Counted from the first letter of the stretch, positions 1,008 to 33,508 are shown. The stretch: DNA of 33,508 bases from a virus (IMGVR_UViG_648276643_000011); one strand, 5' to 3'. Notes: generated by a model from the sequence alone, not told the origin. Numbers and translations: made by a program.

Positions 1008-1355
1008 TTACTTATCACATAAATCAAATGCAGCCTTAGTGACATCCCCCAGACTCTTTTTTAACCCTGGGGCGGCATCATTATCTAGCCAAAATGGATT
1101 ATTGTTATCTAACGGTAACGCACCAAATGTTTTACCTTTTATTCGAGCCAAACCTGTAAGTGCATATAACTTATTATCGTCAAAATTCATCACATAAGGA
1201 TTACCATCAAGACACTGTAATTGAACCTCATCAGTATTAAATGGCCATACCCCATTGAAACTCTCACGTTCAATAGTTTTAAAAGGCATTGCGACGGCGG
1301 AAAAAGAAAACATAGATAAAAAAGTAACTAATAGTTGAACCTTTTTTACTTTCAT
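1008..1355 (-). CDS. Secreted/periplasmic protein of unknown function, possibly DUF2511/YebY-like
   Basis: 115 aa ORF with N-terminal signal peptide (MKVKKVQLLVTFLSMFSFSAVA), strong RBS (GAGGT) upstream; pattern FN..EV.L.C..GN.YV...GK...LC recalled from YebY-type proteins (from memory, unverified). Moderately AT-rich. Confidence 0.55.
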   Translation of the reverse strand: MKVKKVQLLVTFLSMFSFSAVAMPFKTIERESFNGVWPFNTDEVQLQCLDGNPYVMNFDDNKLYALTGLARIKGKTFGALPLDNNNPFWLDNDAAPGLKKSLGDVTKAAFDLCDK

Positions 1356-1384
1356 ATCATTACCTCAATTTAGCTCAAGTAAGA

Positions 1385-2035
1385 TTACAAATTAAAAAAC
1401 GCCCTAGAAATGACACCGCCTACCAAAACCCCTACGCAGATAAAGAATATTATTTCTTTTGGATAAAGTCGGATTAATTCTGAAGCACGAAGTCGGACTT
1501 CTGGTAAGGTCGAACTCTCTGTGTGGCTTGATGCCGATTGTTGCTCTAACCACGACAATGCAGACTGTAACTGAGAACGAGTAAGATCGTTTAAACGTCC
1601 TGTACCGAAATTGATATGGCAATACCGCAGAAGTTTTTGTCGAAGTCCACAGTCTTCACTGTTACGTAGTAATAAACTTACAAGAGCCTTACAGGCATCA
1701 TGATCTTTACATCGCTCAAGCATTGCATGCAGAAAACTCTCCGCTGTTTTATATTGATTTACTGTCATATCATCAATACCAGCTACACCAATCTCCGCAT
1801 GTACTTTTTGCCAAATAATAAACGCTTCAGTATTGCTAGCTTCTGCAATAGCAGCAACCAAGCTATTTAGCTCCTTACGCTGAGCCTTAAGCAAAGGGCG
1901 ATCGTCATCATCATTATTCGAAGGGATTGCGATATTGACGGTATGAGAACCATCATATCGCTCTATCTGAATATTCTTTTCGTGAAAATCACGCCCAGCA
2001 ACGCGATTGTTTGAACCGTTTGAGTTGACGGCCAT
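1385..2035 (-). CDS. Hypothetical C-terminally membrane-anchored protein co-oriented with the repressor
   Basis: 216 aa ORF with strong RBS (GGGAGG) 7 nt upstream; single predicted TM helix at extreme C-terminus (IIFFICVGVLVGGVISRAFF); N-terminus carries motif SNNRVAGRDF that also ends the upstream repressor. Confidence 0.6.
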   Translation of the reverse strand: MAVNSNGSNNRVAGRDFHEKNIQIERYDGSHTVNIAIPSNNDDDDRPLLKAQRKELNSLVAAIAEASNTEAFIIWQKVHAEIGVAGIDDMTVNQYKTAESFLHAMLERCKDHDACKALVSLLLRNSEDCGLRQKLLRYCHINFGTGRLNDLTRSQLQSALSWLEQQSASSHTESSTLPEVRLRASELIRLYPKEIIFFICVGVLVGGVISRAFFNL

Positions 2036-9174: not shown

Positions 9175-10134
9175 ATGAAAATTTGTATCGACGACGGCTC
9201 CACCAACATCAAGCTGGCATGGACTGAGAACGGCGAACGCCGCAACGCCATCAGCCCGAACAGCTTCAAGTCGGAATGGTCTGCGCCGTTCGGTGGCACG
9301 CAGCCCGCGAACTACATGCTTGATGGCGTGCGCTATGGTTTTGATCCTGTCAGCGATCGCTTTGTCCAGACGACCGACACGCAATACCAATACAGCGATG
9401 TGAATGTCATTGCCATTCATCACGCGCTGGTCAAATCAGGCATCACGCCACAGGAGGTGGATGTGGTTGTCACCCTGCCACTGAGCGAGTATTTCGACAC
9501 AAACGCACAGCCGGACATGGCCAACATCAACCGCAAAAAAGCGAACGTTATGCGCCCGGTGGAGTACCAGAACGGCAAAGCATTCACTATCCGTAACGTA
9601 CGGGTTATGCCTGAATCTATTCCGGCTGGCTTTAAAGCACTGGCTGACATGAGTCCGTTTGAATCCCTGCTGATTGTGGATTTAGGCGGAACCACGCTGG
9701 ATGTGGCAAAGGTTCAGGGACAACTGGCAGGTATCAGCCAGGTGTTTTGCGATCCACACGTAGGCGTTTCCCTGATGGCCGATGCAGTACTGTCGGTGAT
9801 GGCCACTAACGGTATGCGTACCAGTCACCACATCGCCAATACCATTATCGAACATCGCCATGATGAAGCTTGGCTGCGCCAGCACATCCACAATGACGCG
9901 CATTACGCCAGCCTGATGGCGGTTATTCGTGAAAAGGAAGAAACACTGAAACAACGCGTGATCCGCGCGCTGGCGGGTTTTTCGGGTTACGGGCGGGTGA
10001 TGGTTGTCGGTGGCGGAGCGGAGATTGTGGCACCCGCTATCCGCGAAGCCTGCGGGGTTAATGCGACTTTCATCGCGGACGGGGTGCCACAGTTTGCTCT
10101 GGTTAATGGGCTGTACGCAATGGACAAGGAGTAA
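9175..10134 (+). CDS. parM: ParM/StbA-family actin-like ATPase
   Basis: 319 aa; N-terminus MKICIDDGSTNIKLAW matches ParM phosphate-1 motif; further ParM-like blocks (YSDVNV.A.HHAL, MPESIPAG, LI.DLGGTTLD, GGGAE) alignable by eye to plasmid R1 ParM (from memory); RBS AAGGA. Confidence 0.8.
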   Translation: MKICIDDGSTNIKLAWTENGERRNAISPNSFKSEWSAPFGGTQPANYMLDGVRYGFDPVSDRFVQTTDTQYQYSDVNVIAIHHALVKSGITPQEVDVVVTLPLSEYFDTNAQPDMANINRKKANVMRPVEYQNGKAFTIRNVRVMPESIPAGFKALADMSPFESLLIVDLGGTTLDVAKVQGQLAGISQVFCDPHVGVSLMADAVLSVMATNGMRTSHHIANTIIEHRHDEAWLRQHIHNDAHYASLMAVIREKEETLKQRVIRALAGFSGYGRVMVVGGGAEIVAPAIREACGVNATFIADGVPQFALVNGLYAMDKE

Positions 10135-23261: not shown

Positions 23262-25919
23262 ATGAGCACGAAATTTAAAACCGTTATCACTACTGCCGGA
23301 GCCGCGAAGCTGGCAGCCGCCACTGTCCCCGGCGGGAAAAAAGTAACTCTGTCTGCAATGGCCGTGGGTGACGGTAATGGCAAATTGCCGGTGCCGGATG
23401 CCGGTCAGACGAAACTGGTGCATGAGGTCTGGCGTCACGCTCTGAATAAAGTCAGCGTGGATAACAAGAATAAAAACTATATCGTGGCTGAACTGGTTGT
23501 ACCGCCAGAAGTGGGCGGCTTCTGGATGCGTGAGCTGGGTCTGTATGACGATGCCGGAACACTGATTGCGGTCGCTAACATGGCGGAAAGCTATAAACCT
23601 GAACTCGCTGAAGGCTCCGGGCGCGCGCAGACCTGCCGCATGGTTATTATTGTCAGCAACGTGGCGTCCGTTGAGCTGAGTATTGATGCCAGCACAGTGA
23701 TGGCGACGCAGGATTACGTCGATGACAAAATCGCAGAGCATGAGCAATCCCGCCGCCATCCTGACGCCACGCTGACAGAAAAAGGTTTTACTCAGTTAAG
23801 TAGCGCAACAAACAGCACCAGTGAAGAGCTGGCGGCAACGCCAAAGGCAGTAAAAGCAGCCTATGACAATGCTGAAAAACGTATGCAGAAAGACCAGAAC
23901 GGTGACGATATTCCAGATAAGGGCGCTTTTCTGGACAATGTTGGCGTTACCAGCCTGACGTTTATGAAAAACAATGGCGAAATGCCGCTTGATGCTGACT
24001 TGAATACATTTGGTCCCGTTAAGGCTTATCTTGGCATCTGGTCTAAAGCAACATCCACCAACGCAACACTGGAGAAAAATTTCCCGGAAGATAATGCTGT
24101 CGGTGTGCTTGAGGTTTTTGCAGCTGGCAATTTTGCAGGCACGCAACGTTTTATCACGAGAGACGGCAATGTATACATGCGTAAACTCGCCAATAAGTGG
24201 AATGGCACTGATGGTCCGTGGGGCGTATGGCGTCACACTCAATCAGCTACCCGCCCTTTGAGTACGACTATAGACCTGAATACGCTTGGAGCCGCTGAGC
24301 ATCTTGGTTTATGGCGTAACAGTAGCTCGGCTATAGCTTCATATGAACGCAATTATCCAGAGGAAGGCGGCTTTGCTCAGGGGACGCTTGAGATCCTCGA
24401 AGGCGGGAATTATGGAAGAACGCAACGTTATACCACTCGTCGTGGGAATATGTACGTTCGCTGCCTTGCGGCAAGCTGGGATGCATCAAATCCGCAGTGG
24501 GAACCGTGGTTAAGAGTCGGTCATCAGTCAGAGAGCCGTTATTACGAAGGTGATTTGAATGTTCTAACCGACCCCGGTATTTACAGTGTTACAGGAAAGG
24601 CGACAAACGGTCCGATGCTGGACGCTGCTGGGGCGACATTGCTTGGGATACTGGAAGTAATCAGGCGTTTTGATGGTGTATCTGTCTGGCAGCGTTACAC
24701 AACCACAGGAAAATCAGAAACCACACAGGGGCGCACTTTTGAGCGCGTCTACGCCGGGAGCACATGGACCGAATGGCGAGAAGTGTATAACTCCTTTTCG
24801 TTGCCCCTGAATATGGGGATCGGTGGCGCAGTGGCAAAACTCACCAGCCTGGACTGGCAGACCTACGATTTTGTGCCGGGCAGTCTGATAACCGTTCGGC
24901 TTGATAACATGACCAATATTCCCGACGGTATGGACTGGGGCGTCATTGATGGCAACCTGATAAACATCGCTGTTGGTCCGAGTGATGATTCCGGTACGGG
25001 GCGCTCAATGCATGTATGGCGCAGCACTGTAAGTAAAGCGAATTACCGCTTTTTTATGGTTCGCATTTCAGGAAATCCGGGAAGCCGCACGATTACGACA
25101 AGACGTGTGCCAATTATCGACGAAGCTCAGACATGGGCGGCGAAACAGACATTCAGCGGTGGTCTTTCTGGCGAACTATCCGGCAATGCTGCTACAGCAA
25201 CAAAGCTGAAAACGGCAAGGACAATTAACGGCGTAAAATTTGACGGCTCGGCAAATATTGAAGCGTTTCCGCCAGGTGTTCCGCTGCCGTGGCCATCAGA
25301 TACTGTGCCGTCTGGTTACGCCCTGATGCAGGGACAGACTTTTGATAAATCTGCATACCCGAAACTTGCAGTCGCTTATCCGTCAGGCGTGATCCCGGAT
25401 ATGCGTGGCTGGACAATCAAGGGCAAACCCGCCAGTGGTCGGGCCGTATTGTCTCTGGAACAGGACGGCATTAAATCGCACACCCACAGTGCCAGCGCAT
25501 CCAGTACGGATTTGGGTACGAAAACCACATCGTCGTTTGATTACGGTACTAAATCAACGAATAACACAGGTGCACATACCCACAATGTATCTGGTACTGC
25601 AAATAGTGCTGGCGCACATACTCATACCGTTCCATTAAGGAGACCAAACAGTGGCGGTATGAATTTCGACTGGCTGGATGGTGCATCAAGTGGCACGGTG
25701 GTGGGGAATGGAACTGTGCCTTCTTCTGGCGCACATACCCACTCAGTATCAGGTACCGCTACAAGTGCTGGGGCACATGCACACACTGTTGGTATTGGCG
25801 CTCATACGCACTCTGTTGCGATTGGTTCACATGGACACACCATCACCGTTAACGCTGCTGGTAACGCGGAAAACACCGTTAAAAACATCGCATTTAATTA
25901 TATTGTGAGGCTTGCATAA
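23262..25919 (+). CDS. H: Tail fibre protein H with internal tandem domain triplication and His-rich GAH(T)H repeats near the C-terminus
   Basis: 885 aa; conserved P2 gpH-like N-terminus; three about 85 aa tandem repeats (residues about 235-500); six GAHTH/GAHAH/GSHGH motifs in the last 130 aa. Confidence 0.9.
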
Positions 25920-26536
25920 TGGCATTCAGAATGAGTGAACAATCACGTACTGTAAAAATTTATAACCTGCTGGCCGGAACTAATGAGTTTATTGGTGAAG
26001 GTGACGCATATATTCCACCTCATACAGGGCTGCCAGCCAATTCTACAGATATCGCCCCACCGGAAATTCCTGCTGGCTTTGTGGCAGTTTTTAACAGTGA
26101 AAATGAATCGTGGAATATTGTTGAAGACCATCGTGGTAAAACGGTCTATGACGTGGCATCGGGGGACGCGTTGTTTATTTCTGAACCCGGACCGCTACCA
26201 GAGAATGTCACCTGGTTGTCGCCAGCAGGGGAGTATCAGAAGTGGGACGGCGTATCCTGGGTGAAGGATGAGGAAGCAGAAAAACTGTTTCGGATACGGG
26301 AAGCGGAAGAGAAAAAGGCAAGGTTGATCCAGGAAGCAACAGATAACATCGCAATTCTGCAGGATGCAGTTAATCTTGAAATAGCAACAAACGAGGAAAA
26401 TTCACAACTGGATTCCTGGAGAAAATACAGAGTATTAGTGAGTAGAATTGACACCAGTACAGCTCCGGATATCGTATGGCCAGAGCTGATGAATCAGGGT
26501 TATGTGCGGGAGGACGAGCAGATAACTTCAGACTGA
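25919..26536 (+). CDS. G: Tail fibre assembly chaperone (gpG-like)
   Basis: 205 aa; ATG overlaps H stop (TAATG); position after H. Confidence 0.8.
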
Positions 26537-27063
26537 AATTTAGTGATGAATGTTGAATCATCTGGAATATCATGCAATACCAATGCATGAGCACCTATTG
26601 TGACATTGTTTCCTATACGCACTTTGCCACCAAGAATGGTGGCATTACAACCAATGGTCACATTATGTCCTATAACAATATCCATATCATTAAAATCACC
26701 ACGCAGCCCAATAGTTACCCCTGGTTTTATTGAACAATTTTCACCGATTGTTACTTTGTGACCGATAACAACACTGTTGAGATAAGAAATATCAAAGCCT
26801 TTCCCTATATTTACAGTTAAAGGGACTGTTACATTATATTTATCAAGAATGAAACGTTCTATTTTCCCCGCAATCTTCCGACAGTATCCGCCTTTATCAA
26901 AAAGGTATTTGGCTATGCGCCACCAAAATAAATAACGAACTCTTCTATGTTTTATTGCGCGAACAATTGCCTTTCGCCAGGAGAAAGGACGCTCGCTACC
27001 GATTACTTCATAGTGAATACAATCTTTAAGTTCATTAATATTCATATCTCTATTATTCAGCAT
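26500..27063 (-). CDS. Hexapeptide-repeat (left-handed beta-helix) acyl/acetyltransferase at the Z/fun variable locus
   Basis: 187 aa; consecutive hexapeptide repeats [21 protein letters not shown] ... [34 protein letters not shown]; about 35 percent GC; convergently overlaps the 3' end of G by 37 bp. Confidence 0.75.
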
Positions 27064-27185
27064 AAGATAATCATGTGACCAATTATTGTAATAATTTTAA
27101 TGGTATGTTTCTACTGGCTATCCAGCGTGTCTGATGTCCAGTAACAAATCGTTAACACTGGTGCAATCAAATGGTGAGTGTTAAG

Positions 27186-27225
27186 ACTGGCCACTTATTA
27201 CCAGGTATGAGGGTATGAGTGGCCA
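27186..27225. other. 9 bp inverted repeat (CTGGCCACT ... AGTGGCCAG) with 22 nt spacer, immediately 3' of gene U
   Basis: Perfect 9 bp arms at 27186-27194 and 27217-27225, between U stop and the acetyltransferase start; weak terminator or protein site; lies at one boundary of the inverted tail block. Confidence 0.35.
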
Positions 27226-27233
27226 GCATTAAA

Positions 27234-27728
27234 TCAGAACAGCCCTTTAACTGAACTGGCCGCGCTGTTAAGGGATGATGTCACTTTATCTTTGAAGCCG
27301 GACAGCATATCGCTGAACGATGAGGATTGCAGGCGCTCCCGCAAATCCTCATCACAGCGTTCAAGGGTCAGTGAAAATTCTATCTTTTTCGCCTTACCGT
27401 AGCGATCAAACTCGGAACGGGTCGTATTCGTTTCGGTCAGGACATACATGCCGTAAATCTGCCCGACGCCATCAATAAGAGGCCAGGGGCGTCCTGTATA
27501 CGCCTGCGTGGTCAGCAGCGACAGCGACACTTCGCCACCTGTAATTTCAGGATAAAGCACACCAGAAAGAACGATGCGATCATCACCTGCACCGATATAC
27601 TGCCAGCTTGCTGAACGGTTAACGCGTTCATTTTTCACATGCCGCCAGCTTTTGTTTTGCTGTAACTGCTGATGCGGCAGCGTGCGCAGCTCAAAAACAA
27701 ACATGCCGTAGATCATCATCATGGCCAT
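27234..27728 (-). CDS. U: Tail protein U
   Basis: 164 aa; follows tape measure as in P2; similarity to P2 gpU. Confidence 0.85.
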   Translation of the reverse strand: MAMMMIYGMFVFELRTLPHQQLQQNKSWRHVKNERVNRSASWQYIGAGDDRIVLSGVLYPEITGGEVSLSLLTTQAYTGRPWPLIDGVGQIYGMYVLTETNTTRSEFDRYGKAKKIEFSLTLERCDEDLRERLQSSSFSDMLSGFKDKVTSSLNSAASSVKGLF

Positions 27729-32809: not shown

Positions 32810-32966
32810 AGCTTCAGCCCCTTGTATCCGTTAAATGATTCGGCAACAATCATCACCCACCACGCGCGTAATCTCACCCCTGCGCCGTTCTCCCGACCCG
32901 GCGACAACAAAAAGCAGTAACCCCCTCCGCACGCACATGCGACCATGCCGCACAGGGAGGGAACAG

Positions 32967-33234
32967 ATGACCGATACCACCATGCAATTGCTCAGTCAGG
33001 GCACAGACCCCGTGAAAATGCCGGATTTTGATATTCTCGCGGAGGGTAAAACGCTGTCAGGCGTGGCAGAGCGCCTGATGAGCCTGTCACTGACCGACAA
33101 CCGGGGATTTGAGGCGGACCAGCTCACCATCACGCTGGATGATGCGGATGGTCAGTTGCAGCTACCGCCACGGGGCGCGCGCCTGACGGTTCTCATTGGC
33201 TGGAAAGGAGAACCGCTGACAGAAAAAGGCACTT
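32967..33234 (+). pseudogene. D: Tail protein D, 5' fragment only (about 88 codons), interrupted by IS30
   Basis: MTDTTMQLLSQGTDPV ... LTDNRGFEADQL ... LDDADGQ ... GWKGEPLTEKG matches the P2 gpD N-terminus; RBS GGGAGGG upstream; homology ends where the IS30 terminal repeat begins. Coordinates plus or minus 1 nt. Confidence 0.8.
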
Positions 33235-33508
33235 GTAGATTCAATTGGTCAACGCAACAGTTATGTGAAAACATGGGGTTGCGGAGGTTTTTTGAATGAG
33301 ACGAACATTTACAGCAGAGGAAAAAGCCTCTGTTTTTGAACTATGGAAGAACGGAACAGGCTTCAGTGAAATAGCGAATATCCTGGGTTCAAAACCCGGA
33401 ACGATCTTCACTATGTTAAGGGATACTGGCGGCATAAAACCCCATGAGCGTAAGCGGGCTGTAGCTCACCTGACACTGTCTGAGCGCGAGGAGATACGAG
33501 CTGGTTTG
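33234..33508 (+). mobile_element. IS30 insertion sequence, left end (continues beyond window)
   Basis: Terminal inverted repeat TGTAGATTCAATTGGTCAACGCAACAG followed by the IS30 transposase start. Coordinates plus or minus 1 nt. Confidence 0.85.
33296..33508 (+). CDS. insI: IS30 transposase, N-terminal portion (partial at window end)
   Basis: MRRTFTAEEKASVFELWKNGTGFSEIANILGSKPGTIFTMLRDTGGIKPHERKRAVAHLTLSEREEIRAGL is the IS30 transposase N-terminus as recalled from memory. Start plus or minus 1 nt. Confidence 0.85.
   Translation, partial: MRRTFTAEEKASVFELWKNGTGFSEIANILGSKPGTIFTMLRDTGGIKPHERKRAVAHLTLSEREEIRAGL

Follow-up and report, generated by a model that had tools for sequence, protein, structure and literature searches.

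What is an AT-rich acyltransferase gene doing directly behind the tail-fibre module of a P2-family prophage, and which cell structure, if any, does its product modify? The question is raised by the viral DNA stretch IMGVR_UViG_648276643_000011 (33,508 nt; the whole stretch analysed is called the window), in which a gene for a left-handed beta-helix (LbH) acyltransferase is located between the tail-fibre assembly gene tfa and the gene for the tail protein gpU (Table 1). We regard it as a self-contained accessory gene (a "moron") of a P88-like prophage and propose, tentatively and with a probability of roughly 0.4, that it encodes a lysogenic-conversion acyltransferase, which decorates a conserved envelope glycan precursor and travels with a host-range cassette. 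The gene is an ordinary kind of phage cargo; what makes it noteworthy is its systematic mis-annotation, a near-unique His-to-Tyr replacement in the active site, and its co-mobility with tail-fibre tips across phage families.

The preliminary description of this DNA had put the gene at 26500–27233. A real open reading frame (ORF) is present there on the minus strand, except that the upper end, 27233, takes in the 170-bp spacer upstream. An upstream ATG at 27063 would yield a protein of 187 amino acids (aa), and the second Met codon, at 27045, one of 181 aa. The latter is the conserved start: it is where homologues begin and where many RefSeq records place the start, and in the allele of enterotoxigenic Escherichia coli (ETEC) H10407 the upstream ATG is replaced by TAC. 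The low GC content that had been noted for the gene is confirmed, at 0.374 (0.29 at third codon positions, GC3) as against 0.45–0.59 (about 0.52) in the flanks. Compared with alleles of 91% and 86% DNA identity, the ratio of nonsynonymous to synonymous substitution rates (dN/dS) is 0.07 (dS 0.32 and 0.70, respectively), and it is similar in comparison with a 73%-identical allele, where dS is saturated; by these ratios, the protein is under strong purifying selection.

The overlap of 37 bp between the 3′ ends of the gene and tfa (26500–26536), also reported in the preliminary description, is present in the window. The window's Tfa carries 15 atypical C-terminal residues (codons 26492–26536), which are encoded antisense to the 3′ end of the acyltransferase gene. 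Tfa proteins normally stop 2–5 residues past a conserved W-P, and the 15-residue extension occurs in no other Tfa that we aligned. The DNA alignment with the H10407 allele, which reads CTG TGA at this point, reveals a 2-bp deletion that removes the in-frame tfa stop codon from the window, and it is because of this deletion that both the extension and the overlap arose. In H10407, Hafnia phage yong2, Citrobacter phiNP and a punavirus, tfa and the acyltransferase gene are convergent and 10–43 bp apart. An overlap designed as an antisense feature was rejected as the primary explanation, as it stems from the 2-bp deletion and is absent from the other alleles; the overlap is derived, a by-product of the junction in the window allele.

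The LbH acyltransferase fold, which had been recognised from the sequence, is upheld by Pfam, by profile comparison and by structure prediction. The Pfam model Hexapep (PF00132) matches with 47.5 bits against a cutoff of 27, and PHROG 2154, a family without an assigned function, matches over the full length (E 4e-79; residues 5–186 of 187). Searched against PDB, a profile built from 41 family sequences retrieves serine acetyltransferases (SATs) at 1e-38 to 1e-31 over profile positions 3–171, the aligned span being residues 102–272 in the Neisseria gonorrhoeae enzyme (NgSAT); Maa, LacA and GlmU reach only ~1e-17 with the same profile. In a first AlphaFold2 (AF2) model, the helix region was poorly predicted and the fold matches were uninformative. 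The AF2 model from 99 sequences (monomer) has a predicted local distance difference test score (pLDDT) of 91.5 and a predicted template modelling score (pTM) of 0.84, and the top 41 Foldseek matches in PDB are all SATs (TM 0.65–0.74), the first non-SAT being Maa at TM 0.30. The predicted architecture is that of a SAT minus the first ~100 residues and the C-terminal tail; that is, the model describes a soluble protein in which a left-handed beta-helix comes after a short N-terminal stretch of helices. The N-terminal four-helix region includes an invariant FWWR motif and an invariant Arg, R49.

The WbbJ/WcaF/Vat/Mat-type enzymes that the preliminary description had named for comparison belong to the wrong branch of the fold, as profile and structure comparison both place the protein with the SATs. 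An affiliation with LacA, Maa, WbbJ, WcaF or Vat was rejected on the profile and fold ranking, the corresponding NCBIfam models scoring 26–40 bits against cutoffs of 183–475. The best NCBIfam neighbours are EpsC, CysE and WcaB, all of them far under their cutoffs: WcaB/EpsC-type models reach 60–81 bits overall against cutoffs of 150–196, the WcaB models (TIGR04016/PRK10191 pair) giving 59.8 bits against 194.65 and 62.2 against 196, and the gene is located in a prophage, not in a wca cluster. Among 1.84 billion cluster representatives, only four sequences matched at E ≤ 1e-30 and, because they are so few, we take the close family to be narrow and apparently enterobacterial.

GenBank and RefSeq name the product "serine acetyltransferase". 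The cysE equivalog model TIGR01172 gives 70.5 bits against a cutoff of 210.65 and PRK11132 gives 44.2 against 397; the SAT N-terminal domain (SATase_N) has no Pfam match in the protein, whose alignment starts only at about SAT residue 100. The active site of NgSAT has been described, including the catalytic role of its His (PMC8786284). Its residues Asp147, Asp161, His162, Glu170, Arg196 and His197 align with Thr79, Ser93, Tyr94, His102, Met127 and Asp128 of the window protein, respectively; none of the six alignable SAT active-site residues is kept.

Catalytic LbH acyltransferases have a conserved active-site His, the position of which is occupied here by Tyr94. The column of this general base holds 95 His, 14 Tyr and 4 Asn in 113 homologues, and all 14 Tyr residues occur in the window's own subclade, down to 53–54% identity; Hafnia phage yong2, outside this count, also has Tyr. 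In 121 further 50%-cluster representatives, there are 118 His, one Tyr and one Asn, and His is present in about 95% of relatives. Relatives at 37–50% identity keep it, including the phage-borne ones of phiNP, the punavirus and ESSI2_ev015. A compensating His conserved across the Tyr subclade was not found (H102, H133 and H159 were checked), and the remaining invariant or near-invariant family positions are all kept, including the "IGENC" motif and the coil glycines. Because purifying selection is strong, the Tyr form is a maintained, functional state, be it catalytic or not. Because the general-base His is a Tyr, the chemistry may differ from standard O-acetylation, e.g., through attack by an amine or through substrate-assisted catalysis.

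The gene (at least 73% DNA identity) is carried by 316 of the 5426 complete E. coli genomes (5.8%), on chromosomes and on phage-plasmids, and the exact tfa–gene–gpU junction is found in 177 of the 316. The mobile host-range cassette to which it belongs (Table 1) is common to 47-kb RepA phage-plasmids, at 93.7% identity, and a part of it, from 23941 to 27133, to P1-like IncY phage-plasmids, at 95.7%. A lambdoid-type prophage of ETEC H10407 harbours a copy of 86% DNA identity convergent with tfa, and the same convergent arrangement is seen at lower protein identity in Hafnia phage yong2 (53%), Citrobacter rodentium phiNP (39%) and the punavirus (37%). In all, at least three phage backbones share fibre tip, tfa and gene, and there are seven contexts, phage or prophage, where gene and tfa converge; an exception to the pairing is ESSI2_ev015, where the gene follows the integrase gene. 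The gene is physically part of a cassette of fibre tip and tfa that has moved among prophages of the genus Xuanwuvirus and two kinds of phage-plasmid, the 47-kb and the P1-like.

Beside the upstream region of the acyltransferase gene, the 47-kb RepA phage-plasmids retain a gpU remnant, the last ~90 bp of such a gene (pSCU-204-5, L007:4748–4838), and this remnant suggests that the cassette derived from a Xuanwuvirus-type context. One P1-like phage-plasmid, pRHBSTW-00312_2 (CP056621.1; L009:7154–8056), has a macro-domain gene inserted between the tail-fibre gene and tfa, immediately ahead of the pair of tfa and acyltransferase gene. A prophage that has otherwise decayed badly still has the acyltransferase gene intact. 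In E. coli E1648 (NZ_CM180508.1), an IS1 element interrupts the gene, and some variants (P0002, P0004, P0018 and P0019) are frameshifted or truncated; amongst the disrupted or chimeric variants, to which P0006 also belongs, are a 230-aa stop-loss read-through, an internal deletion and a 213-aa form with another C-terminal half.

Copies also occur outside the cassette. In ~70 E. coli genomes, a lone chromosomal copy of the Tyr type (73% DNA identity) sits between rcdA and ybjL, and a relative of the His type sits beside ybjJ-ybjI-mdfA in Pluralibacter; the two occupy the same chromosomal neighbourhood. Orphans are found in species-representative genomes of Rosenbergiella, Citrobacter, Leminorella and Erwinia, the one in Erwinia between fnr-like and uspE-like ORFs (named from their N-terminal sequences alone). 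Enterobacteriaceae bacterium BIT-l23 has a chromosomal islet of three tandem hexapeptide genes (L015:5001–6697; 181, 193 and 195 aa), the first of which is a 52%-identical relative of the His type. Farther afield, a SAT-like LbH gene of 31% identity is annotated in dairy phages of the Streptococcus thermophilus 987 group, always at the same place near 17 kb, and the association of this fold with phages may extend beyond enterobacteria.

A sigma-70 promoter-like site upstream of the gene is conserved between the window allele and those of the P1-like phage-plasmids and H10407, with a −10 element that reads TATAAT in the alleles other than the window's. Around it, ~100 bp are conserved across alleles, and the sequences further upstream are unrelated. 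Transcription from this putative promoter is plausible, and late read-through from gpU is possible. The stem-loop right after the gpU stop codon (Table 1) is possibly a weak terminator or the RNA end of the tail operon; downstream of the acyltransferase stop codon, the strand of the gene itself shows no terminator. A 5′ heptanucleotide switch of the NeuO type is absent, as the ORF and the sequence before it lack tandem repeats except for an 8-mer present twice at 27204–27219. The low GC content, the promoter-like site and the purifying selection all fit a lysogenic-conversion gene. As in other morons, the base composition is atypical and presence is variable, the gene being absent from P88 and from most Xuanwuvirus records.

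In the reading that we prefer, the protein would form the trimer usual for the fold and take an acyl group from acyl-coenzyme A (CoA). Expressed in the lysogen, and possibly also late via read-through from gpU, it would acylate, on the cytoplasmic face, a sugar in a widely conserved envelope glycan precursor (lipopolysaccharide (LPS) core, enterobacterial common antigen (ECA) or similar), and the altered cell surface would change either the adsorption of phages that use the structure or other surface properties of the host. A sugar acceptor, which the preliminary description had suggested in the form of LPS or capsule, is proposed because distant members of the family lie in polysaccharide clusters: two that we sampled (31–37% identity) are embedded amongst glycosyltransferase genes together with a Wzx-type flippase gene or NeuB. 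The closest NCBIfam models, EpsC, CysE and WcaB, also count in its favour.

Several observations count against a glycan-decorating enzyme linked to the tail fibre. The close family is never found beside polysaccharide genes, its members being either cargo of phages or solitary genes on chromosomes, and with the general-base His replaced in the sequence, catalysis itself is uncertain. None of 80 species-representative loci with relatives shows a Tfa-like ORF within 4 kb; because of this, the association with tfa is limited to phage-borne copies, and the linkage to the fibre could be hitch-hiking in a recombination hot spot. Lambdoid phages with an 85–89% identical fibre tip and tfa occur without the gene. 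Because its carriers span many serotypes, an O-antigen-specific target is ruled out. Lastly, we found no functional study of the gene in the published literature.

The alternative that survives best, and which we hold to be possible though doubtful, is a small-molecule acetyltransferase (like LacA, Maa, Vat or CatB) that acts on a soluble metabolite, a toxin or an antibiotic-like compound, and brings the host a benefit in fitness or resistance unrelated to adsorption. It would suit orphan copies far from envelope-glycan genes (the one in Pluralibacter directly beside a major facilitator superfamily (MFS) transporter gene), the presence of the gene on plasmids and phage-plasmids and its distribution independent of serotype, and the SAT branch of the fold does act on a small molecule. 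The loss of all six SAT substrate or catalytic residues that can be aligned argues against it, as do the scores of the LacA, Maa, Vat and CatB models (25–32 bits versus cutoffs of 300–475) and the distant relatives in polysaccharide loci, and it leaves the recurrent convergent pairing with tfa unexplained.

Two further readings start from the linkage to the fibre and from the missing His. Fibre tip, chaperone and acyltransferase-like protein could together constitute a module to bind a receptor and mask it, in which the third partner alters, or conceals in some other way, the very envelope structure that the linked fibre recognises, and in which the His-to-Tyr replacement reflects either non-canonical chemistry (e.g., N-acylation or a different donor) or a binding role. 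We judge this unlikely; if true, it would be a distinct superinfection-exclusion device, widespread (~6% of the complete genomes of E. coli) and passed between phages of the P2-like, P1-like and lambdoid kinds. Slightly less likely still is a non-catalytic beta-helix pseudoenzyme that has lost the general-base His and binds CoA, a host enzyme or a protein of another phage. Against it, the other invariant and near-invariant positions, "IGENC" and coil glycines amongst them, are kept, the occurrence of His-type relatives in the same genomic niche suggests a shared activity, and there are other enzyme families in which a Tyr hydroxyl can contribute to acyl transfer.

An enzyme of anti-phage defence or counter-defence, which would acetylate a nucleotide, a signal or material of an incoming phage, is improbable; the preliminary description had offered a nucleotide signal as an alternative substrate. 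The gene does occupy an accessory slot that is hypervariable in this P2-family phage, of a kind that often holds defence genes, and its product is predicted to be soluble and cytoplasmic; against this, no defence-protein model of PADLOC 2.0 matched even at E ≤ 0.1, the gene stands single without a partner, and we found no precedent for the fold in defence in the literature. A functionless passenger, hitch-hiking with the tail-fibre cassette, is very improbable: the recombination hot spot, the IS1-disrupted copy and the frameshifted or truncated variants speak for it, yet dN/dS stays at 0.07 at dS values up to 0.7, the gene is intact in a degraded prophage and it stands alone in the ~70 chromosomes mentioned above. 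A genuine serine O-acetyltransferase that boosts cysteine synthesis in the lysogen, as the database product names and the SATs as nearest solved structures would have it, was rejected and is effectively excluded by the equivalog scores, the absent N-domain and the substituted active site.

The cassette is set in a Xuanwuvirus (P88-like) backbone of the P2 family, which is not that of P2 itself. Over the segment 1–24000, the window has 95–96% DNA identity with phages P88 and 520873 (genus Xuanwuvirus), covering 78–87% of it. By BLASTN, homology with P88 ends at 23290 and restarts at 27229, and the acyltransferase ORF falls in the gap. The integrase gene is followed by replication gene A, the ParM gene, Q/P, the capsid-to-baseplate genes and then H and tfa. 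The tail genes FI, FII, E, T and U are all on the minus strand, the FI–U block being inverted as it is in P88, and the acyltransferase gene lies 170 bp downstream of this late tail operon, on the same strand. At the same slot, P88 has its invertible fibre segment, with a fibre tip and a tfa as alternatives to the first pair, and a DNA invertase gene; this invertase system is absent from the window, where one fixed fibre and the acyltransferase gene occupy the slot instead.

This gene order bears on two claims of the preliminary description. The gene had been assigned to the Z/fun locus, the interval that separates G from FI in the gene order of P2 and is called "moron position 2" (PMC3573123). 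An accessory gene beside the tail-fibre genes is indeed what the window contains, but its neighbours are tfa and gpU rather than G and FI, and the correspondence is one of analogy only. It had also been said to run against the late genes; it opposes H and G, but is co-directional with the tail genes FI–FII–E–T–U.

The C-terminal part of the tail fibre (25400–25900, plus strand) is rich in G-x-H-x-H repeats (AHTHSV, AHAHTV and SHGHTI). Such repeats are typical for tips of the T4 gp37 or lambda Stf type, the receptors of which are LPS core or OmpC. The ParM/StbA gene within the prophage hints at an option of plasmid-like maintenance. Further accessory genes may be present at 1008–2035 (minus strand), where the integrase gene is adjoined by an ORF of 216 aa that has no Pfam match and by one for a DUF2511 protein, and at 32835–33299 (plus strand), where a 154-aa ORF without a Pfam match lies beyond the sheath gene.

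Table 1. Position and strand of the features discussed; coordinates are those of the window unless a locus is given.
Feature	Position	Strand	Evidence or remark
Integrase gene	1–1002	−	
ParM/StbA actin-like segregation gene	9175–10134	+	Likewise annotated in P88
Tail-fibre gene (P2 H-like); the product has a collar domain and fibre repeats of the His-x-His type	23262–25919	+	Pfam Phage_tail_fib, Phage_fiber_2, Collar, Phage_fiber
Mobile host-range cassette: distal tail fibre, tfa, acyltransferase gene and its upstream region	23776–27324	.	BLASTN
Tail-fibre assembly gene tfa (Caudo_TAP)	25919–26536	+	Pfam 1.6e-39
LbH acyltransferase gene, 181 aa from the conserved start	26500–27045	−	ORF; Pfam Hexapep 1e-12; PHROG 2154
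Predicted hexapeptide-repeat left-handed beta-helix, residues about 84–170	26554–26814	−	
Codon TAT, Tyr94 (Tyr88 in the 181-aa numbering)	26782–26784	−	Aligns with the general-base His (E. coli CysE His158; NgSAT His162)
Predicted N-terminal four-helix region, residues 7–76 (187-aa numbering)	26836–27045	−	AF2 pLDDT >90; matches the last helices of the SAT N-domain
Sigma-70 promoter-like site (TAGAAA, 17-nt spacer, TACAAT)	27085–27113	−	Consensus scan
Stem-loop right after the gpU stop codon, no U-tract	27181–27232	−	Inverted repeat; dG −22.5 kcal/mol, z = −4.0
gpU tail protein gene, upstream neighbour of the acyltransferase gene on the same strand	27234–27728	−	Pfam Phage_P2_GpU 5.5e-39
Lone copy between rcdA and ybjL	L012:3956–4507		E. 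coli O145 RM8843
His-type relative beside ybjJ-ybjI-mdfA	L016:5001–5543		Pluralibacter

Amongst known systems, NeuO (PDB 3JQY), the polysialic-acid O-acetyltransferase of prophage CUS-3 in E. coli K1, is a phage enzyme that decorates a surface glycan, and it offers the best functional analogy: it, too, is a prophage-borne, soluble LbH acyltransferase, carried as lysogenic-conversion cargo beside receptor-binding genes. The two have only the fold in common, and the repeat-based switch of NeuO is absent from the window gene. The closest solved architecture is that of CysE (6WYE, 1T3D, 8I04), whose last helices and LbH domain align over nearly the whole protein; the window protein differs in that it is without ~100 N-terminal residues, the C-terminal tail and the substrate and catalytic residues. 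WcaB and EpsC resemble it in size (160–190 aa) and in the arrangement of domains, and no NCBIfam models score better than theirs; unlike them, the window gene lies outside a glycan cluster, encodes Tyr in place of the His and scores under the cutoffs. There is little biochemistry behind WcaB and EpsC themselves.

The nearest positional precedent is NeaT of strain CFT073, an AT-rich acyltransferase moron that lies directly after G and is opposed to it, at "moron position 2" of P2-like phages, and that affects aggregation and the interaction with phagocytes (PMC3573123). NeaT is an integral-membrane protein of the unrelated Acyl_transf_3 fold (PF01757), it is set in the canonical G–FI order, and it is rare in E. 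coli, as against 5.8% for the gene described here. The slot after the fibre-assembly gene is the same as that taken by P2 Z/fun and by the invertible fibre segments with their invertase in P88, P1 and Mu, although the gene content is entirely different; this slot is a hot spot for host-range and exclusion cargo.

Two papers list the gene as a cysteine-pathway or "fitness" gene and leave it unexplained. The reason for its presence is called unknown in a study of P1-like phage-plasmids, and a paper on C. rodentium prophages lists it as a "fitness" gene; in a Klebsiella study, prophage acetyltransferases correlate with capsule loci. The label "serine acetyltransferase", routinely given to this common gene, is misleading wherever metabolism or cargo is analysed. 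Natural and under strong purifying selection, the His-to-Tyr replacement provides a clean test case for LbH acyltransferases without the canonical base. If the product does alter a conserved envelope glycan, phage susceptibility and the host range available to phage therapy would be affected in ETEC and other pathotypes and, possibly, their serology as well.

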